Shown in pieces: positions 32,404 through 48,705 of a stretch of DNA of 64,000 nt (the stretch's first letter is position 1; every line of letters starts with the position of its first letter). Position numbers and translations under genes: made by a program. Under the pieces are notes generated by a model. It did not search any database, was not told the origin of the DNA, and saw nothing but the letters and a program-made list of their open reading frames with translations. The DNA is from a bacterium. Its GTDB lineage: Bacteria; UBA8248. Location: assembly GCA_965203325.1 (NCBI GenBank), contig OZ241875.1:4256001-4320000 (forward strand), given 5' to 3'.

Positions 32404-33138
32404 ATGACGCTGAAACCTATCGCCCCTTCAAGAATCGATGACGGATCGATGACTGACTTGCTCCACCACTCCTGGGAGATCGCGCCCCCCGAAGCGGTTC
32501 GCCTCCAAAAGGCGCTTGAAAAACGCCTGGCTCTGCATCCGCTGTCCGCCGCGCCGAAAACGATCGCGGGCGCCGATATCTCATGCGGGTGGCGCGGGCG
32601 GTTCGGAGTAGGAGGAATGGTCGTTTTCTCCTGGCCGGACATGCGGCCCGTCGACGAATCGTTCCATGGTGGAGATTTGCGGTTCCCCTACGTGCCGGGG
32701 CTGCTCTCTTTCCGGGAGGGGTTCTTGCTCGAAAAAGCCTATCTGGGCTTGAGGGTAAAGCCGGATCTCATCATCTTCGACGGGCAGGGCACGGCCCATC
32801 CCAGAGGACTCGGTATCGCCTCGCATTTGGGACTTCGCCTGGGCGCGCCTTCCATCGGATGCGCTAAGAGCCGCCTGTTCGGCGACGCCGCCGAGCCGTT
32901 GGGAGAGGAAAAAGGGGATTGGCGATACCTGCTCTCACCTGATGGGCGGAAGATAGGCGCGGTTCTCAGGACGAGGCGGGGGGTGAAGCCCGTCTATGTA
33001 TCTCCCGGCCACCTCATCGACATCGAAGATTCTGTCCACTGGGTACTGGCGGCCACTTCCCGGTTCCGTCTGCCAGAGGTGATACGCGCGGCCCACAGGC
33101 GCGTGGGCGAGGAGCGCGTGAGGCGGAAGATGCGATAA
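32404..33138 (+). CDS. nfi: Endonuclease V
   Basis: AGADIS, FPYVPGLLSFRE, DGQGTAHPRGLGIASH, GCAKS and VSPGH. Confidence 0.96.
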   Translation: MTLKPIAPSRIDDGSMTDLLHHSWEIAPPEAVRLQKALEKRLALHPLSAAPKTIAGADISCGWRGRFGVGGMVVFSWPDMRPVDESFHGGDLRFPYVPGLLSFREGFLLEKAYLGLRVKPDLIIFDGQGTAHPRGLGIASHLGLRLGAPSIGCAKSRLFGDAAEPLGEEKGDWRYLLSPDGRKIGAVLRTRRGVKPVYVSPGHLIDIEDSVHWVLAATSRFRLPEVIRAAHRRVGEERVRRKMR

Positions 33139-33167
33139 AAAAGCGCCCCTTGCGAGGCGCTTCTTTT
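33138..33167. terminator. Probable bidirectional terminator
   Basis: A run, AAGCGCC-N8-GGCGCTT and a T run, between convergent nfi and cytochrome c. Confidence 0.65.
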
Positions 33168-33184
33168 GTGCGGGAAATTGAGGT

Positions 33185-36139
33185 CTAGCCGGACGAAGCG
33201 TCGTTTTCGGCCTGTTCGGCCTCAGCCTCCTTTTCGGGCTTCCCGGTTTGAGGCGCTTCGTTCTTCGCGCTGGACTCGCCGGGCTTGAGGAAATTCGTCT
33301 CGATCATCAGGTAATCGCGCATCGCGCGGATTTGCCGGTACGCGTCGCCGCCCAAGAGTTCTTCGTCGATGGGCTCGCCGTGGCTCTCTATCGTCGCCTT
33401 TCCGATGGTTTTTCCGAGATCGACCGGCGAGGAGATGGTCATCTTCTTCTCATCTATTTCCGCCACCTTCACGAGGTGCGTGGCGCCCCCGACGCGCAGG
33501 GTGGCGAATTGCTCTTCCGGCAACTCGACTTCTTCCGTGGCTTCGAGTTCGTAGATGAACAGGTCGTCTTCCTTCTCGCCCCGGACGCCCTTGATGATTT
33601 CAGACTGGGAGCCTGCGCCCTCGAAGAAGTTGGGCATCTTGGTTCCCGGCTGGATTTTGCCCGGGTATATCAGCCAATCGACTATCCAGTCGGGACGCAG
33701 TCGATTCTTGGAGAAAAGCAGGTTCGGCGCCGTAGGCGGTTCCTGCCCCGGCGGGGGCGGCCATTCTCCATGACAGGCCAGGCATTCGGCCATGGCAAAG
33801 AGCTTTTTGCCGGCCTGGAGGTTTTCCGCGCTCACGCTCTTGGCGTCGAAATGGATATAGGGATTCAGTTTCGAGTCCAGCGCGGCGAAGTAATCCACGA
33901 GAGCCGCAGCATCTTTCTCGGGCATCTGGAAGCTGGGCATCCGCACCTTGAGCCATGGCCGCAGCGTCACGACGTTGCGCAGGAAGCCGAAGAACCAATC
34001 GGGCTGCACCTTTCTTCCCTCGCCGTTCAGCAGGGGCGGGCCGTTCGTCTTGTCCTCATAGCGCCTGAGCAGGTCGCCGCCCCAGTTCTCGATGACGTGG
34101 CAGCCGTTGCAGTTGTATTTCTCGATCATCCGGCGGCCGTTTTCGATTCGCCGGGCGCGGGTGTCGAGCACCTGGTGGACGCTGTGCGGCGCGCCGTGCG
34201 GGGTCATGGAGCGCAGCAGGGTGCGTATGGCGGAGACCTCCGGATCGGAAAAGTCGAAGTTCGGCATGAGCAGCGTCTCGCGCTCGGTCTGGTAGAGTTG
34301 CGGGTTCTTGAGCTTGCCGAACGTCCACGCCTCCCAGGTGTGGGGCATGTCGACCACGTTGCCGAAGGAGAGCTCGAAGGGTTTTTTGGCCGCGAAGCGC
34401 GTCAGGTCCGGCCCGATCTTGGAGAGCTTCTCGGTGCCGGGGATGACGTGGCAGCCGAAGCAACCGCGCGTCGCCACGAGTTTCTTGCCGCGCTCGAACG
34501 AGGCCTCATCGCCGAGTTTCCGGGGCTTGGGCCGTTTTGACTCAGGAGTGAGGCTGATGAGATACGAAGTGACCGCACTCGCTTCCTCATCCGTGAGGCG
34601 AAGGCTCGGCATCTTGGTGTCGTGCCAGTAGGCTTTCGGGTTCTTGAGCCAGCGGAACAGCCAGTCGGGCTGGATTTTGGCTCCGATGTTCTGGAGCGCC
34701 GGTGCGAAATCGCGGTTGCGGTAGACGATGGGCCTGCCGTTCACGCCTTCGAGCGGGGGGCCGAGTTCCAGGTCTTTTTCGTTTCGGATGTGGCAACCCA
34801 GGCAACCGACCTCTTCGAAGATGGATTTCCCTTGCTTGATCTGCGCGGCGTCATCGAGATTCGGGAACGCGGCCGGTTCCACCTTGCGCGGACCCTGCCG
34901 CCAGACGTATGTGGCGATGTCCAGCGCTTCCTGGTCCGACAGGCTGAAATAGGGCATGCGGGTGCGCGGGTTGTAGTCTTTCGGCCTCTTGACCCAGGAG
35001 ACGAGCCAGTCGGGCGCCACCTTCTCCTGGATTCTCGAGAGGTCCGGCCCCACCTTGCGCAGGCCTTCCGTGCCCGGAAGGGTGTGGCAGCCGTTACAGC
35101 CCAACTCCCGGGTGAGGGAGATGCCGCGCGAGATTTGCGGCGCCTCGGGGATGTTGAATATCTCGGTGTGGCAGCTTCTGCACTTGGTTTGCGTTTCGCT
35201 GCCGTGCAGAAGAGGGTCTTCCCAGAATTGCACGTGGCCGTGGGCCGTATTGAGGCTGGTGACGGCCGTTCCCTGACCGCCGTGGCAAAGCGTGCAACCG
35301 ACCTTGTTGAATTCGTGCTTCGAGAGATAAAGACGCCTGTTGGGGTGCGTGCGGAAAGGTTGGGGCGCATCCTCGAAGCCCGCCCTGTTGATGCCCAGGT
35401 GACAGGTCTGGCACCGCTCCACCTTCATCACGGGTTCGTTGAAGTTGTTGCGCTCATATTCGCGCAGGACGAGCTGGCTGATCTCATAGGGACGGGCGGA
35501 GATGCCTTTCAGCCGCCGCTCCTGGGAGGAAATGTCGCCCGCCACTTTTCGCCGCGTCGCCTGGAGCGTTTTCAGCTCTTTTTCCTTGGCCTCAATCTTT
35601 GCCTTTATCGCGTCTCTGTCGGCTTCGGCCTTCTCCGCGACGGGCGTTATCTCATCGAGGAGGGCCTTGGCCTCGTCGACTTCGGTTTGCTCGGCTTCTT
35701 TGTCATGTCCTTGCCGGATGGCTTCCTGAAGATAGAAGTAGGACTGATCGAAAAGCGCTTTTCTGAAGCCAAGCTCCTGCACTTTCTCGAAAGCGTCGAG
35801 TTCGCTCTTCGTGAGTTCTGCTTTCAGTTGCTTGAGTTCTTCGTCGCCCGCGAGTTTTTGTTCTTGCGCGGCGATTTTCTTGTCGAGTTCGGCGACCGCG
35901 GAGCCGGTGGTTTTCTTGAGTCTGTCGAGTTCTTTCTCTACCTGGGCTTTTTCATAGGCGTTGAACTGTTTCTGGTATTGTTTCCAGGGTCTGCGCGTGA
36001 ACGCCTCGTCCCAGACGGTCCAGAACGTCACCGCGACCATGAAGAGGCCCAGGATGAAAAACGGAATCGGACTGGTTTTTTCTTCCGGAGGTTTGAAGTC
36101 TCGGCCTTGCATCTTGAAAAAACGCTCCCCCACCGGCAT
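33185..36139 (-). CDS. Membrane-anchored octaheme cytochrome c
   Basis: N-terminal TM and coiled coil, then eight CxxCH motifs (CQTCH, CTLCH, CRSCH, CNGCH, CLGCH, CFGCH, CNGCH, CLACH) with repeated GPDL...W...P...MP units. Confidence 0.92.
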   Translation of the reverse strand: MPVGERFFKMQGRDFKPPEEKTSPIPFFILGLFMVAVTFWTVWDEAFTRRPWKQYQKQFNAYEKAQVEKELDRLKKTTGSAVAELDKKIAAQEQKLAGDEELKQLKAELTKSELDAFEKVQELGFRKALFDQSYFYLQEAIRQGHDKEAEQTEVDEAKALLDEITPVAEKAEADRDAIKAKIEAKEKELKTLQATRRKVAGDISSQERRLKGISARPYEISQLVLREYERNNFNEPVMKVERCQTCHLGINRAGFEDAPQPFRTHPNRRLYLSKHEFNKVGCTLCHGGQGTAVTSLNTAHGHVQFWEDPLLHGSETQTKCRSCHTEIFNIPEAPQISRGISLTRELGCNGCHTLPGTEGLRKVGPDLSRIQEKVAPDWLVSWVKRPKDYNPRTRMPYFSLSDQEALDIATYVWRQGPRKVEPAAFPNLDDAAQIKQGKSIFEEVGCLGCHIRNEKDLELGPPLEGVNGRPIVYRNRDFAPALQNIGAKIQPDWLFRWLKNPKAYWHDTKMPSLRLTDEEASAVTSYLISLTPESKRPKPRKLGDEASFERGKKLVATRGCFGCHVIPGTEKLSKIGPDLTRFAAKKPFELSFGNVVDMPHTWEAWTFGKLKNPQLYQTERETLLMPNFDFSDPEVSAIRTLLRSMTPHGAPHSVHQVLDTRARRIENGRRMIEKYNCNGCHVIENWGGDLLRRYEDKTNGPPLLNGEGRKVQPDWFFGFLRNVVTLRPWLKVRMPSFQMPEKDAAALVDYFAALDSKLNPYIHFDAKSVSAENLQAGKKLFAMAECLACHGEWPPPPGQEPPTAPNLLFSKNRLRPDWIVDWLIYPGKIQPGTKMPNFFEGAGSQSEIIKGVRGEKEDDLFIYELEATEEVELPEEQFATLRVGGATHLVKVAEIDEKKMTISSPVDLGKTIGKATIESHGEPIDEELLGGDAYRQIRAMRDYLMIETNFLKPGESSAKNEAPQTGKPEKEAEAEQAENDASSG

Positions 36140-36334
36140 TTTGAGCGGAAATTCCGGGTTTCTTGGCTAAAATCCGGCTGATTATAGGTACGGGCATGAC
36201 GGGCGTCAACCGCAGAGCGGGTAGTTTTGACTTAAGATAATTCCGCCTGCATACGGGGAGAATATGCTGAAAACGCGAATCGCCTCCCGAAAGAGACGGC
36301 GGGTGTTCATGCCCCGCATTCGCCTCGCCTGAAG

Positions 36335-39300
36335 TTATTCGTTTTGGCTTCTGATGATGCCGGCGAGTTGGCCGATGATGGCGATGGAGATGGTCGGGTG
36401 CTCGTGAATCAGTTCGAGAAGGGGCTCTTTCTCGATACCCAGCAATGAGGTGTCCCGGCTGGCTCGCGCGCCTGCGCTTCTGCCCTCATCGCCGAAAAGC
36501 GCGATTTCCCCGAACGAGGTCGGGGGACCGAGCGTGGCCAGAATCCTCGGCGCCCCGTTCGCCTGGTTGAGGATGATTTCTATTTCCCCGTCCACGATGA
36601 CGTAGAGATAATCACAAGGGTCTCCCTGTTCGAAGAGAACCGTTCCCTCCGGTATCTGGATTTCCCTGGAAATGTTGCTCAGTATTTTCAACTCGTCCGC
36701 GCTCAACGTCTCGAACATGTTGACGCCTTTCAAGAACAGGGCTTTTTCGATGGTCGAGAGCATGAATTTCTCCTGTCCGTGTAGAATTTCGCCGACCGCG
36801 CCGTCTCGGGGGCGGTCCCGGCGCGTCTGGATGCGCACCAGTCGGCTTTCGTCATTCTCCATGGTTCTCAAGAACGCCTCAAGTTCGTCTTCGTCTTTCC
36901 CGATGATTCTCGTTGCGACGACCGCCGCCTCGCGGACGTAGGGGTCGCCCTCGGAGGCCCGCGCCTTGAATTGCGCGCGCCATTCGGCGGTCGCCTCATC
37001 CGGTTCGCTTTCGAGGTGTTTGCCCGCCGCGTCGACGGCGATGGCCTGGAGCCACGCGTTTTCGGAATCCATATAAGTCGTCAGCACCTCGTCAATCGAT
37101 CCTTCGGGTATCTCCCAAAGTTTCCTGCCCTCGGAGACCTTGTCGGCGGTCGACCTGCCGAGCAGCAAAGGTTCGAGAGCCAGAATCAGGACTCTCGTAT
37201 TGCCGGCCGAAGAGAAGTTCGAGAGCGTTTCGATGGCGATGGCTCTCGACGAGGAGCCGCCCCGTGCGAGGGATTCCGACACGGTATCCACCGTCTTCTC
37301 GTCTCCAATCACCCCCAATAGTTCCAGCAAAACCAGTTGTCTTTCCGCGACGACGTCTTCAAGCGCTTTTCTCAGCATCGTGAAGGCGGGTGCGTTTTCC
37401 CGGCGTTCGATGACGTGGAGGTGATTGATGACGCCGTAGACTTCCCGCAGGTGCTCCACGGCGAACCCCGAGAGGGAGTCCACGATTTCCTGCGCGCTCA
37501 TTTCGCGGGAGCCGTTTTCGGCGCTTCTGGACAAAAGCGGAGCAAGAAACGAAAGTACCCCGGAACCTTCGAGCGAGAGGGTTCCTTTTCGCTTCATGTT
37601 CTTGAGCGATTCGACGGCCTCTCGCCTCACCAGAAAATCGACGTCCGAGAGAGCGGTCAGGGCGCGTTCGAAACTCTCCCGCGAGCCTTTGTTGCCCAGT
37701 TGCCGGACGCCTCTGCGCCTGATGGCCGCGCTCTCATCCGAGGTGGTCACCCGGATGACTTCTTCCATGCTCTCCTCATCGACTCCCTGGTTCATGGCCA
37801 GAACTTCTATCGCCTCCAAGGCGGCTTCGCGGACTTTCTCCTCGTCCTGATAGAGATAGGGAATCAATCGTCTGATGAAGCGCGGGTTCTGAAGCTCTCC
37901 CATGCACCTGAGGGCGCAGACCCTGGCCGCCGCGTCTTCTTCGTTCAGCATCCGGTGCAGGGTTTGCAGGCCGTTGGCGAGCCAGAACAGATCGTCCGAG
38001 CGGACGAGCAGCTCGACGGCACGGGCCCGGACTTCGGGGGAGCCGCTTTCCAGATTCTCGTGGACCAGTTCCGCCGTCTCCTCCGTCAGTCCGATGCTTT
38101 CCGCCGCATCCATGGCGGCGCACTGGAGGAGCGGCTCCTCGCAGGTGAGGTATTCCTCCAGCAGGGGCCGCATTTTCTCGCCCTCATCGGCTCCGGGAGC
38201 CCTGGCGAGAATTTTCAGCAACTCGGCCGCGGCCCCTCCTTTTCGCCGGGGGATTTCTTCGAGGATGATCCCGAAAATTTCGCTTCTGCCGCTTTCCGCC
38301 ATCATCTGCGCCGTGAAGACGCAAAGATCATCGTCCCCCTCGCGGATGTTCTTCCTGAGTATCGCCATGCTCTCATCGTCAACCGGGCCGAACCCTTCCT
38401 GCGCGTAGCGGAACAGGCCCAAGTTTCTCTCCTCGAGCATCCGGCGCAGGGCGGCGCCGTATTCATGACGCACGAAGAAGCCGACGGCCAGATAGGCGAA
38501 GGCGATGAACAAGGAGATGAGCGCCAATTGGCCTGCGCTCAAGGGGAAGAGGGCGAGACCGGTGGGCTTGATGATGAGCAGGGCGACGCCGCTGACGATG
38601 CTGGCCACGGCGACCACCTGGCCCGCGACGAACGCGCCGACTCTCGCGCGGATCGAGGGGGAGACGGCGTTATAGAGCAGGGCGTTGATGGCGTTTCGAA
38701 TCGATTCCTGGAGGTTCTTGTTGTTGAAGCGCAAGAAGACGGCGGAATAGAAGCCGGGCGAAATCGCCATGCCGGCGAGGCCGATGATGGTCGTGAGCGG
38801 GTAGAGGAGGTTCGCCGTTCCCAGGCCGAGCCGCTTGATGATGCGCGGGGTGATGAACGTCTGAACGAGCAGGGAGAAGGCGCTCCCGATGGCGGTGAAA
38901 TACCCTAAAAACGAGGCGAGTTGCGCGCGGTCGGGAAAGACTTCGCGGAATACGAGGCTGTATTGGAAATCCTGAAAACTCCTGAGAATCACCACGATGA
39001 AGCTGAACAGGGCGAACGCGCAGACGTATCTGTTCGTCCGCATGAGCGCGAGATTGCCGCCTTTTGAGGCCGTCTTGGTTGTTTTGCGCTTTTTGGGGCC
39101 CGCATCGTCGATCAGGTGGTCTCTCAGCCGCCGTTCGGTGTATTGCACCACACCGACGCTTACGACGATGGCGCCGATCCATACATAGAGCAGATTCGAG
39201 ACGCTCCCCAGGATGGGGATGAGCAGCGGAATGGCGAGGCCGCCGACAATGCCGCCGTAGCGTCCCCCGGTCAGGATGATCGGAACCAGCCGTTTGGATT

Positions 39301-39742
39301 GCAGGACGTCGAGATACTGCCCGTAAAGGGCGCGGAAATTGTTCGGCAGCATGTTCGTGAACATGACGAACAGCGTGTGGAGAAGCGGGAATGCGATCGG
39401 CATCGCGTAGGCGCGGAAATCCGCGAAGATGAGCAGTTTGATGCCGAAAACGAGCACGATGAAAAAAACCAGGACGGTCTTGAACATCGCCGGAATCGAG
39501 AGTTTTTCGGTCAGCGAGGAGTAGAAGGTGCTGATGAAGATGATCATCAGGGCGTTGAATATGTACATATAGGGGAGAAAACCCGGGCCGACTTCCGAGA
39601 GGAACAGGGCTTCGGATACGGTGAGCCCGATGGAGAACTGAATCCCGATCAGGAAATAGAAGAAAAAGAACACCGAGAAGACGAGCAACTCTTCTTCCTG
39701 GATGTTGAAGACTTTTTTGAGGAGTTTCTTCATGCCGGTCAC
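36335..39742 (-). CDS. NTT/TLC-like MFS transporter fused to HEAT repeats and a cNMP-binding domain
   Basis: Multi-TM N-terminus (SEALFLSEVG..LPYMYI), HEAT-like repeats (PEVRARAVELL), and C-terminal IEKALFLKGV...LFEQGD...FGEIALF...RSA. Confidence 0.85.
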   Translation of the reverse strand: MTGMKKLLKKVFNIQEEELLVFSVFFFFYFLIGIQFSIGLTVSEALFLSEVGPGFLPYMYIFNALMIIFISTFYSSLTEKLSIPAMFKTVLVFFIVLVFGIKLLIFADFRAYAMPIAFPLLHTLFVMFTNMLPNNFRALYGQYLDVLQSKRLVPIILTGGRYGGIVGGLAIPLLIPILGSVSNLLYVWIGAIVVSVGVVQYTERRLRDHLIDDAGPKKRKTTKTASKGGNLALMRTNRYVCAFALFSFIVVILRSFQDFQYSLVFREVFPDRAQLASFLGYFTAIGSAFSLLVQTFITPRIIKRLGLGTANLLYPLTTIIGLAGMAISPGFYSAVFLRFNNKNLQESIRNAINALLYNAVSPSIRARVGAFVAGQVVAVASIVSGVALLIIKPTGLALFPLSAGQLALISLFIAFAYLAVGFFVRHEYGAALRRMLEERNLGLFRYAQEGFGPVDDESMAILRKNIREGDDDLCVFTAQMMAESGRSEIFGIILEEIPRRKGGAAAELLKILARAPGADEGEKMRPLLEEYLTCEEPLLQCAAMDAAESIGLTEETAELVHENLESGSPEVRARAVELLVRSDDLFWLANGLQTLHRMLNEEDAAARVCALRCMGELQNPRFIRRLIPYLYQDEEKVREAALEAIEVLAMNQGVDEESMEEVIRVTTSDESAAIRRRGVRQLGNKGSRESFERALTALSDVDFLVRREAVESLKNMKRKGTLSLEGSGVLSFLAPLLSRSAENGSREMSAQEIVDSLSGFAVEHLREVYGVINHLHVIERRENAPAFTMLRKALEDVVAERQLVLLELLGVIGDEKTVDTVSESLARGGSSSRAIAIETLSNFSSAGNTRVLILALEPLLLGRSTADKVSEGRKLWEIPEGSIDEVLTTYMDSENAWLQAIAVDAAGKHLESEPDEATAEWRAQFKARASEGDPYVREAAVVATRIIGKDEDELEAFLRTMENDESRLVRIQTRRDRPRDGAVGEILHGQEKFMLSTIEKALFLKGVNMFETLSADELKILSNISREIQIPEGTVLFEQGDPCDYLYVIVDGEIEIILNQANGAPRILATLGPPTSFGEIALFGDEGRSAGARASRDTSLLGIEKEPLLELIHEHPTISIAIIGQLAGIIRSQNE

Positions 39743-39829
39743 TTATCAAGCGGTGGAGAGGATACTTCGTGAGATTATCGCCTCCCGGAAGCTCCGGAGT
39801 GGAAGCGAACTTGCGCTGTTGATTCTAGC

Positions 39830-41476
39830 CTAGGCTTTTTGAGATTTCCATGAGTAGAACGACAAGGCGTCCTCCGTCCACTGCGCGCAGTTCCGGCTGA
39901 ATCTATCCCATCGGCTGTTGGCGCATTGGGCGCGAACGGGGTCGGCGTTGCCCTCGGCAATGAGGCCGTTGAGCGGCGAGAGGTCGAATTCGGCCCGAAC
40001 GGGCACTCTGCCGCGCTCCTCGGGGCCGAGGAGAGACAAAAAGCGCGCGAACGCGTCGAATGCGCCTCGAATCTTCTCGCACAGGTGCTCCGCGCCTCCC
40101 GCGTATGCGACCAGGGGTGGAACCAAAGGGGCGTAGCGGTTCAGTTCCATGCCACCCTCCGTGCGGTTCGTGATGCTGTCCACGCCGACGACCCCGACCG
40201 AATCCTCCGAGAATTCCACCGGAAAGAGTCTGGCGTAAATCGTTTCCACGACCGGCCCTTCGCGGCTGAGCCTCAGATGAACGCGGACGCTGAACAGGCC
40301 GAAATCGATCCAGTCGCATATCAGCGGAAGGTAGCGCGCGTCGAACACCTGCTCGTAGTTCTCGATGGCGCTCGCCAGGAGGCGAATCGAATCCTCACGC
40401 GTGCGGGACGCTTCGCGCAGTTCGGATTCGAGTCTGGGCGCGCAGTTTTTGAGCATCTGCCCCAAAACGTCCGGGGAAGCGCCGCCTCCCGCCCTTCGGG
40501 TCTTGACGTAGGCTTTCGCGGTCGCCGGGCTTTCCTGGAAGCGGTGAACGAGCCAGTCCATCGCCTGGAGGTGATCGTGGTTTTCCGCGTCGAGAGACAA
40601 GGGGAGGGGAATCGCGTGGTCCGCCGCGACGCCGAGTCTGCTCAAATCCGGAAATCCGAACCCGTTGGGGTAGACGTCCAGCCGAAAGCATCCGCGTCCC
40701 CCGCCGCCTTCCTGCGGTTTGACGAAGAAAGTCCCCGTCCCCCGTTTTTGAGACAGGGCGGAGGCCCTCTCCAGAATGGCGGCGGCGGTCTCCGCAGGTC
40801 TTCCTCCGTTCAGTTCCACCACTTCATAGGCGGCCGTCAGGCGACGCTCGGGACCGCCCGCTTCGGGGTTTTCCGTGTCCGTCCCGTTTCCGTTCAGGAG
40901 TTCGTACGTGGTTTTCTTGTTGGAGAGCGGCCCGCCGGGGGCGGTGAGAGACCCCGGCGCGACGACGATTCCGCGGGCTTCCAGGACCTTGGCGAGGGTG
41001 GCGTCGTAGAGGCTTCTCTGGGCGGTCTGGCTGATGACGAGCAACTCTTTCGGCGCTCTGGCGGCGCGGGCCAGCAGTTCCTCCCGCCGGTTCAGGACCC
41101 TGACGGGGATGGACAACCCGAGTTGTTTCAGGTGCGCCCTCATCACCCGCGCCGTTTCCATGGTGAGGGGGAGCCGGCTCGGGGAGCCGTCCAGCAAAAG
41201 GATTTCTCCCGGACGCCGAATGGGCGGCGCGTCTTCCAGAATGCGCAAGTCTGCGAAACGGGGTTCGCGCGACGCCCAGAGGTTGAGGCTTTCGATCAGC
41301 GTTTCGTTCAGATCGCCGTCAGGCGAGTCGAACTCCCGGCTCACGCGGTACAGGTCCCAGACGCCGCCGCTCGCATCGGGCGTGAGATTGTAGAGAGCGG
41401 GTTCCCGCGCGATGCGGGGATGGTTTGATGGTTTGCGCGAGGTCAAGGTTTCGTTCTCGATGCCTAAAACACCCAC
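39830..41476 (-). CDS. Divergent ATP-grasp-fold protein
   Basis: SNKKTTY, FFVKPQEGGGGRG and late EFDL...AEGNAD, matching ATP-grasp Lys1/Lys2/ExN positions. Confidence 0.65.
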   Translation of the reverse strand: MGVLGIENETLTSRKPSNHPRIAREPALYNLTPDASGGVWDLYRVSREFDSPDGDLNETLIESLNLWASREPRFADLRILEDAPPIRRPGEILLLDGSPSRLPLTMETARVMRAHLKQLGLSIPVRVLNRREELLARAARAPKELLVISQTAQRSLYDATLAKVLEARGIVVAPGSLTAPGGPLSNKKTTYELLNGNGTDTENPEAGGPERRLTAAYEVVELNGGRPAETAAAILERASALSQKRGTGTFFVKPQEGGGGRGCFRLDVYPNGFGFPDLSRLGVAADHAIPLPLSLDAENHDHLQAMDWLVHRFQESPATAKAYVKTRRAGGGASPDVLGQMLKNCAPRLESELREASRTREDSIRLLASAIENYEQVFDARYLPLICDWIDFGLFSVRVHLRLSREGPVVETIYARLFPVEFSEDSVGVVGVDSITNRTEGGMELNRYAPLVPPLVAYAGGAEHLCEKIRGAFDAFARFLSLLGPEERGRVPVRAEFDLSPLNGLIAEGNADPVRAQCANSRWDRFSRNCAQWTEDALSFYSWKSQKA

Positions 41477-42633
41477 TTGCGCTGGCGCATGAAGTGTTTG
41501 ATCACCCAGTCCGCAATGGCGCCGCCCACGGCATTGTCGGTCGCAAGGGAAGAGGGGTTCGGGGCGATGCAGCTCAGGGCGCGTATCCCCGTCATACGAT
41601 ACGCCTCCTCGCGCGCGTGCGCTTCGTTGGCGAGCCTTCCGGAAATGAGCATGTTTTCCTCCTCCACCCCCAGGTGGCTTCGGATCCAGTGGACGATGAG
41701 CGTTGATTCCAGCGTATCACATGCGCAGACGATCAACCCTCTGCGCGAGAGCCAGTCTTTGACCCAGGGGTCGCTCGCCACGTGAAGGCTGGCGTCCGAG
41801 GAGGGAGAATCCGCCAGTTCCGCGATGACGATTTCCGCCTTGGCGCATGCGTGGCGTAGCAGGTTTTGGGCGCATCGCCTGACCTTGTGCCTGGAGACGC
41901 CGCACGTGGAGGCAAGGCCCGCATCGACGAAATCCCAGCCGAGTCTCGCGGAATCGAAAAACCCGAGCGGTCTTCCGTAGTTCACTTGCATGAGGTCCCG
42001 CATCCGGCCGGTTCCCGTGAGTTTCACGTATGAAACGTGAATGCCCGAGGAGTGCAGGGCGGAGGCGAGCGAAGACGCGCAGGTCGTTTTGCCCACGTCC
42101 ATATCGGAGCCGGTGACCAGGATGATGGGAGCGCAGGGAACTCCCTCTTCATCCACGGGGCAGCGGGTATCGGGAATGACGGGGAGATGAGAAAGCAGAG
42201 CGGGTTCGCCTCGATGCGCGACGCCCCCTTTCACCTCTATTCTCACGCACGGCGTTTCGGGGTTCGTGCGGATCCCGCAGACGCCGCCGACATTCAACAG
42301 GTCGAGCACGGTTCCGGGTGCTGCGGGAGAGTCCGGCTCACGGCCCGAAACGCTGCGATTCGCATATCGCCCGCCGATCACAACGACCACGTTCATCTTT
42401 TCGCGCAATTTTGCTTCGCTCGTCATCCAGGCATCTTGCGTCCCCTGGAGGACTTCGAGTGTTTCCAGGCGATCGACGGGAGCGTTCTTCGGCGCTGCGA
42501 CGACTTCACCCAGCGCGATTCCGTTCGAGGGAACGGCCCTGGGGTCGGGCGTGAAATCCGCATCGAACGCATACGGGATTTCAGGCGACAGGAACAATCC
42601 TCGGGCGGTGGATGCGAAAAAGTCCGGTTTCAA
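41464..42633 (-). CDS. DUF1611-like P-loop protein
   Basis: GGRYA, LLNVGGVCG, TGSDMDVGKTT, KLTGTGRMRD, DFVDAGLAST and ELAD. Confidence 0.78.
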   Translation of the reverse strand: MKPDFFASTARGLFLSPEIPYAFDADFTPDPRAVPSNGIALGEVVAAPKNAPVDRLETLEVLQGTQDAWMTSEAKLREKMNVVVVIGGRYANRSVSGREPDSPAAPGTVLDLLNVGGVCGIRTNPETPCVRIEVKGGVAHRGEPALLSHLPVIPDTRCPVDEEGVPCAPIILVTGSDMDVGKTTCASSLASALHSSGIHVSYVKLTGTGRMRDLMQVNYGRPLGFFDSARLGWDFVDAGLASTCGVSRHKVRRCAQNLLRHACAKAEIVIAELADSPSSDASLHVASDPWVKDWLSRRGLIVCACDTLESTLIVHWIRSHLGVEEENMLISGRLANEAHAREEAYRMTGIRALSCIAPNPSSLATDNAVGGAIADWVIKHFMRQRKWVF

Positions 42634-42646
42634 TTTTCACCATGTC

Positions 42647-44137
42647 CTAAGCGGGAGAAAGAGCGAGACGGCGCGTGAATGTATCTATCATTTCCCGGGC
42701 GGCGGGGGATATCTGCTCTTCTCCCTCTTCATAATAGATGGATGAGACGCCCTCGAGCTTACAGAATGCTCCCCTCGGCTCTACTATGGTGCCTTTCGCC
42801 GGGGGAGAGCAAGTGACGAGCACCTCATCCTGGTCTTGAACGTCGCTCAGGCGATAACCCCGCCGGATGAATTCGGGCCTCCCGTTTTGGACGGTGTAGA
42901 TTCCGGGTTCCAGCGAATAACCGATTCGCGCTCTCGAAGGGCTCGTGTTTCGAATCAAAAGCTGAAAACCGGATAAATCCGATCGGCCGAGTTCGGCGAG
43001 CGAATCCCGGTGTGCGTCGAGAGCGGCGCCCGGCTTCAGGAATTCGGCCAGATGCCAGTAGGTGGTGGTGGGTGCGTCGCCGTGTATTTCCTCGAGCTCG
43101 GTCATCAGTTGCGTGGTTCCCAGCACGCGCGGGTTGAGTTCGAGGGCATAGGGTTCGTCCCGATGGACGATGAAATCGACGCCGTATATCCCCCGGTAGC
43201 CCGCACGGGCTATCCACTCTCCGATTTTCAGGGTGAATTCCTCGATTTTTCGCCGGCTCCTTTCGGAAACCAGCCGATACGCCGCATAGTCGCTTCCGGC
43301 ATAGTCGAAGCGGTGCATGGAGCAGCCGGGAATTCCCGTGAACATCACCGAAGGGTGGGACATCCGGGGTTTCCCGTCATAAATCAACCCCGCCGTTCCC
43401 AGGGCGGGGCCGCTCAGAAACGCGCTCACGATCACCGGCGCATCGGGGCCCAGTTTTTCGGTGAGTTCATCCCGTTTGTTCGCGAGCGCCTCGGATGAGT
43501 CGATGAGGTGCGTCTGGTTGCCCGAGGAGCCGATTCGCTCCGAAATGATCATGACCGGCCCGAATTGATCAAGTTGTTTGGGTCCGAGTTCGCCCAGGGC
43601 CACCACGTCCCCCGGGGGAACGGCGAACCCCGCTTCGACCGCTTGGCGCCGGAACGCTATCTTGTCATCGAATCTCGTCTTGATTTCCACCGGGTTCGCC
43701 AGGATGTGGAGCCTGCCGTCGGCTTCTTCTGCGAGTTTGCCGAGGAATTCCGTGGAGCGGTAGGGGATGACGTATCGGGGAGCGTCCCCTTGTGAGAGAA
43801 ATTCCCGGATTTGAGAGCCCAGGGCGCCTTCATAGGCTTCTACGAGTGATGAATGGGTCCATACGATTCGTCTGTTCCGCCCGCGCTCCACGGCGAAATA
43901 GCGCAGGCGCCTGTCCCATTCGGGCCCGTCGAGACCGTAGTCACAGGCGATGAGGAAATCGAGGGGGACGATGTTTTCCACCGTGATCGAATCGACCGCG
44001 CGCAGCCCCTGAAAGCCGAACGTCGAGCCGTCCGGAACGGCGGAGGTCAGCGCTTCTTTGAAACTGTCTTTTGCATGACGAGACAAGGAAAAGCATCCTT
44101 CATGGAGAATCAATGATGAATGTCCAGACGGCGCCAA
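42647..44137 (-). CDS. ATP-grasp peptide/amide ligase-like protein
   Basis: FDDKIAFR, GSSGNQTHLI, GYRGIYGVDF and ELNPR. Confidence 0.8.
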   Translation of the reverse strand: MAPSGHSSLILHEGCFSLSRHAKDSFKEALTSAVPDGSTFGFQGLRAVDSITVENIVPLDFLIACDYGLDGPEWDRRLRYFAVERGRNRRIVWTHSSLVEAYEGALGSQIREFLSQGDAPRYVIPYRSTEFLGKLAEEADGRLHILANPVEIKTRFDDKIAFRRQAVEAGFAVPPGDVVALGELGPKQLDQFGPVMIISERIGSSGNQTHLIDSSEALANKRDELTEKLGPDAPVIVSAFLSGPALGTAGLIYDGKPRMSHPSVMFTGIPGCSMHRFDYAGSDYAAYRLVSERSRRKIEEFTLKIGEWIARAGYRGIYGVDFIVHRDEPYALELNPRVLGTTQLMTELEEIHGDAPTTTYWHLAEFLKPGAALDAHRDSLAELGRSDLSGFQLLIRNTSPSRARIGYSLEPGIYTVQNGRPEFIRRGYRLSDVQDQDEVLVTCSPPAKGTIVEPRGAFCKLEGVSSIYYEEGEEQISPAAREMIDTFTRRLALSPA

Positions 44138-44310
44138 AATGAAAACAGGCGATTCTAATTCGATAGCCTCGCGGATATCAACATAATAATACGGCGTTTC
44201 GGAAAACGATCGGTGTCACTCCCGGGAGCTTCTGCAACGCGCAGCGCGCTATGCTAGGATACGGGGCGTTTCAGCCGAAAAATGACACACTCATGCGTGA
44301 GAGTGGATGT

Positions 44311-45243
44311 ATGTCCGTAGAGAGAAACATGCCCGAATCGGCGTTGGATACCGATGAATACCCGATGATGTCGGAATCGGAGCTCAGGTGGGAGAAATTC
44401 CGCCGGAGTTTGGTGCGCGCCAAACCGGCGATGCTCGGAGGCGTTTTTCTCATCCTGCTGGTGGTCGTTTCTCTTTCCGCCCCCCTCATCGCGCCGCAAG
44501 ACCCGAGCCTGGTGGACGTCAACCTGCGCCTGAAGCCTCCCGTGTGGGAGGAGGGCGGGAGCGTGAGCTACCCCCTGGGAACCGACGCGCTGGGCCGGGA
44601 CATTCTGAGCCGGCTCATGTACGGGGGCCGCGTCTCCATTCTGGTGGGCTTGAGTTCGGTGGTGATTTCGGGGGTCATCGGCATCGTCCTGGGCCTTGTC
44701 TCGGGTTTTTTCGGCGGGAAAATCGACGATCTCATCAGCGGGTTTTCCGAAATCCAACTGGCGTTTCCCTTCATTCTGCTGGCCCTCACGATCATGGCGG
44801 TCGTCGGGCCGGGCCTGCTCAACATCATCGTGGTGCTGGGGATCAGCCGGTGGGTGGCGTACGGCCGCGTGGTGAGAGGACAGGTCATCTCGATAAGGGA
44901 GCGCGAATTCGTGGAGGCCACGCGCGCCCTGGGTTACCCTTTGTACCGCATATTGTTCATGCAGATTCTGCCCAACACCTTATCTCCGCTGATCGTCATC
45001 GCCACCTTCGCCGTGGCGGGGAACATCATTTCCGAATCCTCGCTGAGTTTCCTCGGGCTCGGCGTACCGCCCTCGGTCGTCACCTGGGGGGGCATGTTGT
45101 CCGAGGGACGCGAATATCTGAGAGGCGCGTGGTGGATGGCGACTTTTCCGGGTCTCGCCATCATGGCGACGGTTCTGAGCATCAACCTTATCGGCGACTG
45201 GCTGCGGGACTACATGGACCCCCGCCTCGGCGATGATATGTAG
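44311..45243 (+). CDS. dppC: Peptide ABC transporter permease (DppC/OppC)
   Basis: LGTDALGRD, EFVEATRALG and ESSLSFLGLG. Start uncertain (44251-44328). Confidence 0.92.
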   Translation: MSVERNMPESALDTDEYPMMSESELRWEKFRRSLVRAKPAMLGGVFLILLVVVSLSAPLIAPQDPSLVDVNLRLKPPVWEEGGSVSYPLGTDALGRDILSRLMYGGRVSILVGLSSVVISGVIGIVLGLVSGFFGGKIDDLISGFSEIQLAFPFILLALTIMAVVGPGLLNIIVVLGISRWVAYGRVVRGQVISIREREFVEATRALGYPLYRILFMQILPNTLSPLIVIATFAVAGNIISESSLSFLGLGVPPSVVTWGGMLSEGREYLRGAWWMATFPGLAIMATVLSINLIGDWLRDYMDPRLGDDM

Positions 45244-45264
45244 GTTTCTGAAGGGAATTCGTGC

Positions 45265-46812
45265 ATGAAAAGGGCCTTGTTGTGCGGATGTTGTCTGCTG
45301 CTCGTGGCGCTCGCCGCCTGCGGCCGCGAAGCGAAAGAGGGTCCCTTCACGGTTCTCCTCTCGGTGGAGGCCAATACGCTCGACCCCCATTTCGCGACGG
45401 CCACCATCGAGTGGAGCATATTGATGAACATGTTCGACCCGCTCATCGAACGGCGCGGCGATATGACGCTGGGCCCCGCCCTGGCCGAACGCTGGGAGGT
45501 GGACGAGACGAAAAAAATCTGGACGTTTCATCTTCGCAAAGGGGTGAAGTTTCATAACGGCGAACCTTTCGATGCGGAATCCGTGCGCTACACGTTCGAG
45601 CGCATGCGCGATAAAAAGCTCAAGCCCCGCATCACGGTTTACCGGAGGATTTTCCTGGACAGGGTGGAAAAAGTGGACTCCCACACCGTGAAGATTCATA
45701 CGAAGCGCCCGGTCGCCACCCTGCCGGTGTGGATGGTGAACGCGTTCATGCTGCCGCCCAAGTATTATTCGTCGACCCCGCCCAAGGAATTGTTGAAGAA
45801 ACCCGTGGGCTCGGGACCCTACAAGCTGGTGAAATGGGTCAAGGACGACCGCATCGAGATGGCGGCCAACGAGGGCTGGTGGCGGGGTGAGCCTGCGATA
45901 AAAAAAGCGGTCTGGCGGCCGGTGGCCGAGGCTTCGGCCCGCATAGGGGAGCTTGAGACGGGCGGGGCCGACGTCATCATGAATATCTCGCCCGATCAGT
46001 CGAAAACCATTCTGTCGAGAGAAGAGGGTCTCCAGCTTAAAGGTGCTCGGGGGGGACGCAGGATTTATCTGGGAATTCGCACGGATCACGGGGTGCTCGG
46101 CGATGCGCGCGTCCGCCGGGCGCTGAACCACGCGATTGATTTCGAGGCCGTCGTCAGGAACGTTTTTCTGGGCCATGGCTCGCGGATGCGCAGCATCGTC
46201 AATCCCCCGAACGCCGCCCCGAACATCAAGGCGTACGCCTACGATCCCCCAAAGGCGAAAGCGCTCCTCGCCGAGGCCGGTCTCAAGGATACGAATGGGG
46301 ACGGTGTCCTGGAAGCGAATGGAAAGCCATTTGAGGTGAAACTTGAAGTACCCGCTTCCAGATATTTGAAAGGAAAGGAGATGGCGGAATTTATAGCAGC
46401 TTATTTCCGCGACGTGGGCGTCCACGTGGAAGTGATTCCCCTGGAGTGGTCCGTTTTCCTCGCCAGAAGGAGAAAAAAGACGCTGGCGCCCTTGTATTTT
46501 CACGGGTTCAGTTCCGCCTTCAACGAAGAACTCGACCTGGGTGTATTGAGGCCGAACCTTTTCGCGAACCTCACCGCCTGGAGGAACCGGAAGTTTATTC
46601 AAAATTACAAGAAGTTGGGCCAGACGTTCGACCCCGCCGAGCGCAAGCGGATCAGCTACCGGATGCAGCGCATCGTTCACGAGGAAAGTCCGTGGGTGTT
46701 TCTCTGGAACCAGTATGATTTTTTCGGCCTGAGCGCGAGGACGCAGTGGACGCCGAGGCCGGATGAGAGAATCTACCTGCCCACGATTCGCTTGAAAGAG
46801 GCGAAAGAATAG
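45265..46812 (+). CDS. Peptide ABC transporter substrate-binding lipoprotein (family 5)
   Basis: Lipobox LAAC, TLDP, FHLRKGVKFHNG, PVGSGPY and RVRRALNHAID. Confidence 0.92.
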   Translation: MKRALLCGCCLLLVALAACGREAKEGPFTVLLSVEANTLDPHFATATIEWSILMNMFDPLIERRGDMTLGPALAERWEVDETKKIWTFHLRKGVKFHNGEPFDAESVRYTFERMRDKKLKPRITVYRRIFLDRVEKVDSHTVKIHTKRPVATLPVWMVNAFMLPPKYYSSTPPKELLKKPVGSGPYKLVKWVKDDRIEMAANEGWWRGEPAIKKAVWRPVAEASARIGELETGGADVIMNISPDQSKTILSREEGLQLKGARGGRRIYLGIRTDHGVLGDARVRRALNHAIDFEAVVRNVFLGHGSRMRSIVNPPNAAPNIKAYAYDPPKAKALLAEAGLKDTNGDGVLEANGKPFEVKLEVPASRYLKGKEMAEFIAAYFRDVGVHVEVIPLEWSVFLARRRKKTLAPLYFHGFSSAFNEELDLGVLRPNLFANLTAWRNRKFIQNYKKLGQTFDPAERKRISYRMQRIVHEESPWVFLWNQYDFFGLSARTQWTPRPDERIYLPTIRLKEAKE

Positions 46813-46815
46813 ACG

Positions 46816-47733
46816 ATGAGCGCCTATCTTTTCAGACGATTTCTTCGGGCCGTCGTGGTCGTGGTCGGCGTGAGCTTCATCTCGTTCGCCGTCTTGTTCC
46901 TATCGGGCGACCCGACCGACACCATGGTGGGCGAGGACTGGACGGTCGAGGAGGTACAGAAACTCAAAAAAGACTTGGGTCTGGACAAGCCCTGGTTCGT
47001 TCAATACACGCTCTACGTGGGCAGGGCGGTGCAGGGTGATTTCGGAGAAAGCCTGCGCTACCGCCAGCCCGCGTTCGAACTCATCATGGAGCGTCTGCCG
47101 GCGACGCTGGAACTCGCTCTCGTGGCGCTGGTTCTCTCGATTATCCTGGCGTTTCCGGTAGGAGTCATCAGCGCGACGAAACGCGGCTCTCCGTATGATC
47201 ACGGGGGGATGCTATTCGCGCTCCTGGGGCAGTCCATGCCCGTTTTCTGGCTCGGCTTGATGCTCATCCTCATCTTCGGGGTGGGTCTGCGGTGGCTGCC
47301 CGTCAGCGGAAGAAGCGGCTGGGAGCATCTGGTGCTGCCCGCCATCGCGCTTTCCACCTACTCGATTGCGAGAAACGCGCGGGTGGTCCGAAGCTCCATG
47401 CTCGAGGTTCTGCGGCATGAATACGTGAAGACCGCCCGGGCGAAGGGACTCTCCGAGTGGGTCGTCGTCAACCTGCACGTGCTCAGGAATTCCATGATTC
47501 CGGTGATCACCATCATCGGCCTCGAATTCGGGCATCTGCTGGGGGGTGCTGTGATCGTCGAGACGATTTTCTCCTGGCCGGGGGTGGGAAGGCTCCTGAT
47601 CCAGGCCGTCTACGCCAAGGATTTCCCCCTGGTGCAGGCCTCGGTGACCATCACCGCTCTGATTTTCGTGTCATTGAACCTCATCGTTGACCTGATGTAT
47701 TCCGTCCTCGACCCAAGGGTGAGACTCCATTGA
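46816..47733 (+). CDS. dppB: Peptide ABC transporter permease (DppB/OppB)
   Basis: GDFGES, RLPATLEL, YVKTARAKGL and ETIFSWPG. Confidence 0.93.
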   Translation: MSAYLFRRFLRAVVVVVGVSFISFAVLFLSGDPTDTMVGEDWTVEEVQKLKKDLGLDKPWFVQYTLYVGRAVQGDFGESLRYRQPAFELIMERLPATLELALVALVLSIILAFPVGVISATKRGSPYDHGGMLFALLGQSMPVFWLGLMLILIFGVGLRWLPVSGRSGWEHLVLPAIALSTYSIARNARVVRSSMLEVLRHEYVKTARAKGLSEWVVVNLHVLRNSMIPVITIIGLEFGHLLGGAVIVETIFSWPGVGRLLIQAVYAKDFPLVQASVTITALIFVSLNLIVDLMYSVLDPRVRLH

Positions 47734-48668
47734 GCCGGACCGCGTATTTCTGGACACCCGAATCTCTCATGCACGACAACGGCCGGCATGTGGAGAACGT
47801 CGAGCGCGCCAAACGCCTGGCGCCCGAGAGAATACTCCCCCAAGTCCCGTCGCTCCGACACATGGAGATTACACCGCACGACGCTAAGGAGTGGGTTCTG
47901 AGGGTGCATGAGGAATCGCACCACCGCTTCGTGCGCGAAGCGTGTGACGGCGGCAGGTGTATTCTCGATGGCGGAGATACGCTGGCGGGTCCGGGAAGCT
48001 ATGAGGCCGCCCTCGCCGCTGTCGATGCGGCCCTGAGCGCGGCGGATGCCGTCGTGGGTGGGGAGGCCGATAACGCCTTTTGCGCCGCGAGGCCTCCGGG
48101 ACACCACGCCTTGCCCCATCAGTCGATGGGTTTTTGCCTGTTCGCTACCGCTTCCATCCTGGTTCGGTATCTGCAGGAAAAACACGGCCTCCGGAGAATC
48201 GCCGTGGTGGATTGGGACGTGCATCACGGAAACGGCACGCAGGATACCTTCTGGCGAGATCCGGATGTTTTTTTCGTCTCCTTGCATCAGCATCCCCACT
48301 ATCCGGGCACGGGGCTCTCGGGCGAGACGGGGGAGGGAGCGGGCGAGGGTGCGACGCTCAACATTCCCGTCGCGGCGAGAACGCCCGAGGAGGAATACTT
48401 GGCGAAATTTCAGGAAAGCGTTATCCTCGCCATCGAGGCGCACGCGCCCGAAGCGATCATCGTATCGGCGGGTTTCGACGCGCACCGCGACGACCCGCTC
48501 GGAGGGCTGATGATCACCGAAGCCGGGTTCGCCCGCCTGACCGGATGGGTGAAGACGCTTGCCGAAAGCCTCTGCGGGGGGCGGCTTATCTGTCTTCTCG
48601 AAGGCGGATACAACCTCGACGCATTGGAGCGCTCCGTCGTCGCGCACTTGCGAGAACTTTCGGGGTAA
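47730..48668 (+). CDS. Histone deacetylase-family Zn amidohydrolase
   Basis: RPPGHHA, DWDVHHGNGTQ, SAGFDAH and LEGGY. Overlaps the permease by 4 bp. Confidence 0.94.
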   Translation: MSRTAYFWTPESLMHDNGRHVENVERAKRLAPERILPQVPSLRHMEITPHDAKEWVLRVHEESHHRFVREACDGGRCILDGGDTLAGPGSYEAALAAVDAALSAADAVVGGEADNAFCAARPPGHHALPHQSMGFCLFATASILVRYLQEKHGLRRIAVVDWDVHHGNGTQDTFWRDPDVFFVSLHQHPHYPGTGLSGETGEGAGEGATLNIPVAARTPEEEYLAKFQESVILAIEAHAPEAIIVSAGFDAHRDDPLGGLMITEAGFARLTGWVKTLAESLCGGRLICLLEGGYNLDALERSVVAHLRELSG

Positions 48669-48705
48669 CGGATTTGCACACCGGGCTTACAGACAGCCCA
48701 AAAAT

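Follow-up and report, generated by a model that had tools for sequence, protein, structure and literature searches.

What do two dissimilar ATP-grasp enzymes, a P-loop protein and a membrane protein with a cyclic-nucleotide-binding domain do when their genes lie side by side, and how many of the four belong to one system? The question is raised by a locus on the bacterial contig OZ241875.1 (assembly GCA_965203325.1, lineage UBA8248). The stretch of DNA analysed, called the window below, is 64,000 nucleotides (nt) long and covers positions 4,256,001 to 4,320,000 of the contig. The four genes are designated g1 to g4:

42647-44137, minus strand: g1, 496 amino acids (aa), TTG start, ATP-grasp ligase
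41464-42633, minus strand: g2, 389 aa, TTG start, SIMIBI P-loop protein (BioD/CTP-synthase-like) with an all-beta N-terminal domain
39830-41476, minus strand: g3, 548 aa, GTG start, sequence-orphan ATP-grasp ligase
36335-39742, minus strand: g4, 1135 aa, GTG start, NTT(TLC)-HEAT-cNMP-binding fusion membrane protein

The answer has two levels. Judged from sequence comparison, the g1+g3 pair is the conserved core, and g2 and g4 are confined to one lineage. What the pair makes is a more tentative matter. With slightly less than even confidence, we read g1 and g3 as performing two amide ligations that would give a short peptide-like product, linked to transport.

Gene layout

All four open reading frames (ORFs) have protein-level homologues, with identities down to 24-60%, and at this level they are confirmed as real genes. 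An earlier note on this DNA, made from the letters alone and called the original prediction below, described four co-oriented genes separated by a 13-nt gap, a 13-nt overlap and an 87-nt gap. The same arrangement is found here on the minus strand at 36335-44137: with the listed starts, g1 and g2 are 13 nt apart (42634-42646), g2 and g3 overlap by 13 nt (41464-41476) and g3 and g4 are separated by 87 nt (39743-39829).

Alternative starts shift these values slightly. Most close homologues of g3 are 538 aa long, as against the 548 aa listed, so the TTG at 41446 fits as the g3 start (538 aa) and replaces the overlap with a 17-nt gap. The g4 homologues are 1132 aa long, and the ATG at 39733 is therefore the likely g4 start (1132 aa, 96-nt spacer). 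The TTG at 44113 is a possible g1 start because conservation of g1 begins only at residue 9. Across the start choices the intergenic spacers range from -13 to +96 nt; the tight packing and the co-orientation of the genes are unaffected.

The conserved core pair

Loci were collected by a scan with the g3 alignment, one genome per species, and g1 to g4 were then sought by tblastn in the 70 loci obtained. g1 is found directly upstream of g3 in 68 of the 70, which is 68/68 of the informative loci, as the contigs of the remaining two (L003 and L024) start inside g2. The taxon labels of the loci comprise Nitrospinota, Tectomicrobia, Omnitrophota, Planctomycetota, Elusimicrobiota, KSB1, Auribacterota and Myxococcota.

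The loci form two clades. Clade A, the type found in the window, consists of 30 loci (L001-L030) from Nitrospinota, Tectomicrobia and unlabelled metagenome-assembled genomes. g2 is situated between g1 and g3 in all 30 (49-99% identity), and g4 lies downstream in 28, the contigs of the other two ending earlier. Clade B consists of 40 loci labelled Omnitrophota, Planctomycetia, Elusimicrobiota, KSB1, Deltaproteobacteria and Auribacterota; tblastn finds g2 and g4 in none of them. Identity between the clades is 24-33% for g1 and 32-36% for g3. In a FastTree tree of 68 g3 sequences, clade A is split off by a branch with 100% local support.

Clade A shows synteny over ~20 kb, with the gene order HDAC-like, OppB, SBP_bac_5, OppC, g1-g4, cytochrome c, EndoV and RelA/SpoT. 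Membership of g2 in the system is better argued from its position, inserted between the two core genes and tightly coupled to both; the case for g4 is that clade B has a transporter from another family in the same slot. The expectation that the four genes occur together in other genomes is thus borne out across phyla for g1 and g3, but for g2 and g4 only within one syntenic lineage. That g1 and g3 are paired across phyla suggests that widespread, as yet uncultured bacteria (marine Nitrospinota, Tectomicrobia, Omnitrophota) make a product by ligation in two steps.

The g3 protein

By sequence, g3 matches none of the Pfam families, yields no meaningful NCBIfam match and finds no PDB chain, either alone or as a profile; the Dala_Dala_lig_N and Dala_Dala_lig_C models also give no match. 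An AlphaFold model built from 27 homologues has a predicted local distance difference test (pLDDT) score of 84.8 and a predicted template modelling (pTM) score of 0.87. A Foldseek search with this model returns D-Ala-D-Ala ligases (Ddl) first (8evz_A, E-value = 3.7e-6, probability 1.0). Further matches are DcsG, LysX/ArgX, PurK and carbamoyl-phosphate synthetase (CPS), with probability 1.0, E-values of 4e-6 to 6e-5 and template modelling scores on the target of at most 0.64. On the strength of the model, g3 adopts the three-domain ATP-grasp fold, as the original prediction had supposed for the 548-aa protein.

Residues K187, K253, G257-G260, G262, D498, E508, N510 and R515 are invariant in the 27 g3 sequences. 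K253 sits in the segment FFVKPQEGGGGRG, and the Gly loop reads GGGGRG. Because both lysines, the Gly loop and the D/E/N metal triad are retained, g3 looks catalytically complete; the correspondence of its residues with those of Ddl is drawn from motif order and predicted strands and not from a residue-level superposition.

The window carries a regular gene of this kind as well:

22426-23520, minus strand: regular D-Ala-D-Ala ligase (Dala_Dala_lig_C, 5e-64)

With this gene present, g3 is not the housekeeping Ddl and is not needed for cell-wall synthesis. A profile search of 1.84 billion representative proteins with g3 gives 44 matches at E ≤ 1e-3, of which 39 are at ≤ 1e-10 and 29 at ≤ 1e-30. 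Fragments account for many of the 44, and the matches do not trail off into other ATP-grasp families. No match to g3 is found on plasmids. With 44 matches among 1.84 billion representatives, g3 defines a rare ATP-grasp family that is missing from the curated libraries.

The g1 protein

g1 shows its affiliation by sequence. It matches Pfam ATP-grasp_3 (PF02655) with 29.1 bits (cut-off 23.2), and a profile of 23 homologues finds CPS, pyruvate carboxylase and PurT in the PDB at 3e-8 to 4e-4, and BesA too. These matches place g1 in the ATP-grasp superfamily. Its best NCBIfam match is PRK06524, 'biotin carboxylase' (1e-17 to 2e-20), at 63-72 bits against an equivalog cut-off of 684. Invariant in the alignment of the 23 sequences are K153, D157, K159, S204-S205-G206, T209, D321, E333, N335, P336 and R337. 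Among these are the DK motif (D157, K159), the SSG loop (S204-G206) and the metal triad with its Arg (D321/E333/N335/R337).

At the position expected for it on the strand before the Gly-rich loop, the window g1 has neither Lys nor Arg. The segment IISERIGSSG corresponds to residues 197-206, and S199 occupies the position of the canonical second Lys of ATP-grasp enzymes, which agrees with the earlier observation that the first enzyme lacks this residue. In the alignment, the eight clade-A rows have Ser in five cases, Thr in two and Arg in one at this position, and the 15 clade-B rows have Gln in 13 and Lys in two. The second Lys is not universal, since the aligned residue is Arg in CPS, one of the matches of the g1 profile.

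No sequence relationship between g1 and g3 can be detected. BLASTP gives nothing significant and the profile-profile comparison with hhalign a probability of 0.4%, in keeping with their earlier description as dissimilar. A prediction of the g1-g3 complex, run without controls, scored 0.00 and counts neither for nor against binding.

Neighbours of the pair in clade B

A gene for a MATCAP/QEGLA zinc carboxypeptidase is found directly upstream of g1 in 25 of the 31 clade-B loci with enough upstream DNA, and is also present on the deepest clade-B branches. The peptidase matches PF08014 at 1e-44 to 3e-53 and TIGR02421 ('QEGLA') at 157-205 bits, under the 338-bit cut-off, with the HExxxH and EEGLA motifs intact. 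The CstA transporter gene is directly downstream of g3 in 21/30 clade-B loci. The slot after g3 is thus held by two unrelated transporter families, NTT-HEAT-cNBD (cNBD, cyclic-nucleotide-binding domain) in clade A and CstA in clade B. Because a MATCAP-type carboxypeptidase and CstA bracket the clade-B pair, a product with a cleavable C-terminal residue is suggested, with transport as part of the system.

Two further genes recur in clade B: an SPL-like radical S-adenosylmethionine (SAM) gene in 23/40 loci (e.g. L034 5242-7349 and equivalents) and a SagB-family dehydrogenase gene in 15/40 (130 bits, cut-off 78). In Omnitrophota-type loci they are situated upstream of the MATCAP-like peptidase where seen, and they are missing from the deep clade-B branches. 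None of the MATCAP, CstA, SPL-like and SagB-like genes is found in the window or in clade-A loci (MATCAP 0/30, tblastn at 1e-3).

The peptidase brings in a different explanation, in which the enzymes form a writer-eraser system for a C-terminal tail. By analogy with RimK acting on S6 and TTL on tubulin, g1 and g3 would add amino acids to a protein or ribosomal peptide and MATCAP would remove them; in the lineage of the window the eraser would be encoded elsewhere or lost. Ligase/peptidase pairs are established for tubulin (TTL/MATCAP) and for RimK/RimB. The position of a peptidase with an intact HExxxH motif beside the pair is consistent with such a system, and the structures matched by the g3 model include LysX/ArgX, enzymes whose target is the C-terminal Glu of a carrier protein. 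However, g1 and g3 give no match to the TTL and RimK models of Pfam and NCBIfam, no candidate target gene or small conserved ORF is seen in or near the cluster, and both the window and the clade-A loci are devoid of MATCAP. In addition, a transporter in the post-g3 slot of both lineages fits a small molecule better. We consider a C-terminal tail on a protein or ribosomal peptide unlikely, while giving it some weight. The small-molecule reading is preferred because of the transporter found after g3 in both lineages and because no target or precursor gene is seen. The 'small modified peptide or amide' of the original prediction stays plausible, but a reversible C-terminal tail on a peptide or protein fits the MATCAP of clade B equally well.

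A bolder version of the same analogy would join g1+g3 and MATCAP into a prokaryotic ligase/carboxypeptidase cycle that extends C-termini reversibly, a counterpart and possible forerunner of the tubulin tyrosination/detyrosination cycle. In Nitrospinota the bacterial cycle would have been rebuilt to include a BioD-like enzyme and an NTT transporter gated by cyclic nucleotides. This is a long shot. If true, the cycle would for the first time place the NTT-HEAT-cNBD proteins of free-living bacteria in a functional setting.

The SPL-like radical SAM and SagB genes could also be taken as signs of a pathway for a ribosomally synthesised and post-translationally modified peptide (RiPP) or a scaffold peptide, either graspetide-like or of the amino-acid-on-scaffold kind, where the ATP-grasp enzymes would act on a ribosomal precursor. 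Such a pathway is scarcely probable. A search for conserved ORFs of 20-100 aa near the cluster in the 70 loci gives no precursor peptide in either clade, and none had been seen in the window before. The two genes are absent from clade A as well as from the deep branches of clade B, and g1 and g3, each ~500 aa, match none of the graspetide-type ATP-grasp models of Pfam. The conserved 'small ORFs' that flank clade-B clusters (e.g. L034 4380-4900 and 14970-15210; L037 3240-4090) look like translated transfer RNA (tRNA) genes, as judged by eye and not by a tRNA scan, and this likeness suggests tRNA gene clusters on both sides of the clade-B loci.

In three Elusimicrobiota-type loci a CobA/CobO/BtuR-type P-loop gene (family c45) overlaps the 3' end of the g3 homologue (L051 11433-11960; L059 4378-4950; L064). 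Its product, unrelated to g2, is another P-loop protein that is coupled to the g1+g3 pair.

The g2 protein

The AlphaFold 2 model of g2 (pLDDT 79.3) displays an all-beta N-terminal domain (residues 1-165) and an alpha/beta P-loop domain. Foldseek relates the P-loop domain most closely to CTP synthase (synthetase domain; 8fve_A, E-value = 1.6e-6), HypB (5auq_F), BioD (1dts/3of5) and SRP GTPases. The P-loop GSDMDVGKTT and the motif K204-L-T-G-T-G are invariant. In residues 1-216 Pfam finds nothing besides the P-loop.

The original prediction described g2 as a DUF1611-like P-loop protein. The likeness holds for a P-loop stretch of ~45 residues (~168-212), the only part covered by DUF1611 and AAA_26, both of them below cut-off. 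Pfam DUF1611 (PF07755) gives 20.4 bits against 25, over residues 168-211 only; the match is seen at E ≤ 0.01 in 15/16 members of the g2 family, the best at 1.9e-4. The BioD model TIGR00347 reaches 26.9 bits against a cut-off of 83.3. Beyond this stretch the likeness fails. The fold is nearest to CTP synthase, HypB and BioD, no DUF1611 structure is among the 50 Foldseek matches listed, and the N-terminal domain is predicted to be all-beta. The DUF1611_N domain is Rossmann-like. Judged from the model, g2 is a BioD/CTP-synthase-type SIMIBI P-loop protein and only marginally DUF1611-like.

The g2 family is limited to Nitrospinota/Tectomicrobia (61 clusters). A few remote matches carry PF07755, e.g. 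P0117 with 29% identity and an E-value of 2e-10. The original prediction named DgcN as a characterised DUF1611 protein that acts on D-glutamate; the accessible part of PMC12363236 agrees, giving dgcN as the key gene of a D-Glu racemisation pathway.

The g4 protein and its place in the cluster

g4 consists of three parts:

38363-39742, minus strand: NTT/TLC-like membrane domain (aa 1-460)
36773-38305, minus strand: HEAT-repeat region (~aa 480-990), with four HEAT_2 stretches and alphaRep matches at aa 550-715
36353-36733, minus strand: cyclic-nucleotide-binding domain (aa 1004-1130), with PF00027 spanning aa 1029-1115

Pfam finds HEAT_2 (PF13646) at 4.8e-24 and cNMP_binding (PF00027) at 3.7e-21, so that the fusion to HEAT repeats and a cyclic-nucleotide-binding domain is as first described. 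The cNBD matches PDB chains of PKG, PKA-R and CRP at 5e-18 to 1e-11, and contains the segment FGEIALFGDEGRSA, which we take to resemble a phosphate-binding cassette. The membrane domain gives no direct Pfam match to PF03219 (TLC). Distant homologues of the N-terminal 460 aa (E-values of 1e-110 to 1e-10) carry PF03219 as well as HEAT_2 and cNMP_binding; the name of one such homologue is 'Npt1/Npt2 family nucleotide transporter'. A language-model search (Atlas) places g4 with TLC clusters at 0.97. By these homologies g4 most likely belongs to the published NTT-HEAT-cNBD fusion family. Major, Embley & Williams (2017, PMC5381601) describe this architecture as a monophyletic group, found widely in bacteria, whose function is uncharacterised; the accessible part of their paper reports no link to ATP-grasp genes. 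PADLOC gave only domain-level matches to the cNMP and HEAT parts of g4, and a role in anti-phage defence was rejected.

Three promoter-like sites are found around the cluster, the first of them by consensus match only:

44152-44181, minus strand: promoter-like site upstream of g1 (TTGATA-18-TAGAAT, 10/12)
39822-39850, minus strand: promoter-like site from the 3' end of g3 into the g3-g4 spacer (TGGAAA-17-TAGAAT, 9/12)
36181-36209, minus strand: strong promoter-like site upstream of the multihaem cytochrome c gene (11/12)

A -10-like TAnnnT box stands right after the g3 stop in 26/28 clade-A loci, as counted by eye, with the variants TAGAAT, TAGACT, TACTAT and TAATAT; the rest of the spacer is divergent. 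No convincing structured RNA is found in the g3-g4 spacer (consensus energy -4.75 kcal/mol, little covariation), and an Rfam scan of 33000-49000 (E ≤ 1) finds no riboswitch before g1 or g4. The only match of the scan, fluoride-riboswitch-like and situated at 47152-47250 (minus strand) inside the OppB-like gene, reaches 21.6 bits against a gathering threshold of 34 (E = 0.035) and is probably due to chance.

The conserved box raises the question of whether the functional unit is g1-g2-g3 only, with g4 an independently transcribed neighbour retained through the synteny of the lineage. Consistent with this, NTT-HEAT-cNBD proteins are common without the cluster (PMC5381601, accessible part), and the downstream cytochrome c, EndoV and RelA genes are equally conserved in position. 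Against it, g4 has the same orientation and a constant spacer of 74-119 nt in 27/28 clade-A loci, no terminator-like site is found between g3 and g4, and a different transporter is at the same position in clade B. An internal promoter is also compatible with read-through. A unit without g4 is doubtful in our view, with a substantial chance of being right. Thus the 'four-gene operon' of the original prediction stands as regards co-orientation and short spacers, but the operon is not secure because g4 has its own conserved -10-like box and a widespread family.

A gene for a multihaem cytochrome c of 984 aa with a SoxX-like segment (33185-36139, minus strand) is directly downstream of g4. The intergenic region between the two is conserved in clade A.

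Proposed pathway

Both g1 and g3 have kept their Mg-ATP-binding residues. In the pathway that we tentatively favour, g1 and g3 would form two successive amide bonds on one acceptor, each ATP-dependent and via an acyl-phosphate intermediate, to give a short peptide-like molecule or a tail with a free C-terminal residue. g2 would probably contribute a third ATP-dependent step, which may be C-N bond formation, amidation, ring closure or phosphoryl transfer. g4 would probably carry a substrate or the product through the membrane, or act as a nucleotide exchanger, regulated in either case by cyclic nucleotides. The folds, the conserved catalytic motifs and the adjacency of the genes with its phylogenetic spread are observed; the type of reaction, the order of the steps, the role of g2, and the direction and cargo of transport are inferred.

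Several points weigh against this pathway. The ATP chemistry of g1 may be atypical, because the canonical second Lys is replaced (S199 in the window, Gln in most clade-B rows). The g1-g3 pairing was assessed from loci retrieved by g3 alone, a sample that covers g1 in the company of g3. The regular occurrence of g2 and g4 in clade-A loci is weak evidence of shared function because the whole ~20 kb is syntenic. Furthermore, g4 has its own -10-like box, and proteins of its family occur widely outside the g1-g3 cluster, in our searches as well as in the accessible part of PMC5381601. The step from clade B to the window is indirect, as MATCAP, CstA, SPL and SagB genes are absent in clade A and identities are low.

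Opp-like neighbours and plasmid relatives of g1

Divergent from g1, an Opp-like ATP-binding cassette (ABC) transporter system is followed by an amidohydrolase gene:

44251-45243, plus strand: OppC-like permease, divergent from g1
45265-46812, plus strand: SBP_bac_5 protein of the Opp-like system
46816-47733, plus strand: OppB-like permease of the Opp-like system
47730-48668, plus strand: Hist_deacetyl-family (HDAC-like) amidohydrolase, overlapping the OppB-like gene by 4 nt

No ATPase gene is found near this system in the window. Distant relatives of g1 (tblastn, 22-28% identity) are annotated as 'biotin carboxylase' on alphaproteobacterial plasmids (Rhizobium, Sinorhizobium and Roseobacter). 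In the two plasmid records inspected, the g1-like gene occurs in a conserved cluster with an 860-920-aa Orn/Lys/Arg-decarboxylase-like gene, a C45 (AAT) peptidase gene and an SBP_bac_5 ABC transporter:

L071, 3907-14819: plasmid g1-like cluster, Rhizobium
L072, 2815-14972: plasmid g1-like cluster, Roseobacter

Given these clusters, the Opp-like and HDAC-like genes may belong to the g1-g4 pathway. A ligase with a peptidase or amidase and a peptide-type transporter is a theme that recurs three times around this ATP-grasp branch, in clade B, on the plasmids and in the Opp/HDAC genes of the window.

The recurring theme can be turned around and read as a module for salvage or catabolism. A compound of peptide-like or amide nature would be imported by CstA, the neighbouring Opp-like ABC system or perhaps g4 and trimmed by a peptidase or amidase, and the pieces would then be re-ligated or activated by the ATP-grasp enzymes, for instance when cell-wall or D-amino-acid peptides are recycled. 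The peptide-type transporter CstA after the clade-B pair, the Opp-like and amidohydrolase genes beside g1 in the window and clade A, and the peptidase and SBP_bac_5 genes beside the plasmid relatives are all consistent with this, as are the structural resemblance of g3 to Ddl and the remote DUF1611 kinship of g2, which recalls DgcN of D-Glu catabolism. On the other side, biosynthesis is the usual role of ATP-grasp ligases, the Opp/HDAC adjacency in clade A is indistinguishable from plain synteny, SBP_bac_5 systems are very common on rhizobial plasmids, and the regular Ddl at 22426-23520 makes g3 unneeded for cell-wall synthesis. We regard salvage as rather improbable; the biosynthesis of a short peptide-like product stays the preferred reading.

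Other features of the window

The region 636-18009 has the appearance of an integrated conjugative element, either a remnant or a copy:

636-3461: TrwC relaxase
3458-5545: TrwB/TraG coupling protein
6336-9629: ResIII/DEAD helicase
13608-14768: tyrosine integrase
16346-18009: AbiEii/AbiEi toxin-antitoxin pair

The G+C content is 0.49-0.53 over 6001-14000 and ~0.60 elsewhere. A Rieske protein gene and a split cytochrome b (a b6-like N part and a petD-like C part) are found in a row at 25602-28036 (plus strand).

Comparison with known systems

The cluster is uncharacterised, as originally stated: homologues of g2 and g3 are annotated only as 'hypothetical protein', and those of g4 have domain-only or family-level names. 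The g1+g3 pair, its link with the MATCAP family and the four-gene form of Nitrospinota are undescribed in the literature searched, which covered few subscription journals. In its proposed mode of action the system is like the ATP-grasp amide ligase pathways of L-amino-acid ligases, Ddl and LysX/ArgX. None of the four proteins is a member of the Ddl, L-amino-acid ligase, LysX/ArgX, TTL or RimK families, and g3 fails every sequence model.

g3 resembles Ddl, L-amino-acid ligases, LysX/ArgX and DcsG in that its model superposes on them and has the two lysines, the Gly-rich loop and the acidic/Asn metal triad. Unlike Ddl, it is ~240 residues longer, with an added helical N-terminus and a helical insert at ~300-378. 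g1 matches ATP-grasp models by sequence, but its second Lys is missing. g2 shares with DUF1611/DgcN and BioD the GxDxxVGKT P-loop and a SIMIBI fold, and differs from them in its predicted all-beta N-terminal domain and in PF07755 and TIGR00347 scores below cut-off. g4 shows the three-part architecture of NTT-HEAT-cNBD fusions and an N-terminal domain homologous to PF03219 members, although its own membrane domain falls below detection by the Pfam TLC model. Its association with the g1+g3 pair is one of few genomic leads to the function of that transporter family.

The plasmid genes of the PRK06524 type resemble the g1 cluster in the flanking peptidase (C45) and peptide-type ABC transporter, and differ in having a decarboxylase of the Orn/Lys/Arg type as partner and in that the plasmid search found no g3 partner. 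The clade-B pair resembles TTL/MATCAP and RimK/RimB in that an ATP-grasp ligase gene adjoins the gene of a MATCAP-family zinc peptidase (PF08014, TIGR02421-like), whereas its ligases are not of the TTL or RimK type and are two rather than one; in the lineage of the window no MATCAP gene is nearby. Enzymes of the MATCAP family are known mainly from work on eukaryotic microtubules, and their link with the pair places them in a bacterial setting that can be tested. Taken as a whole, the system is an uncharacterised variant within the well-known kind of ATP-grasp enzymes and not a new kind of system.

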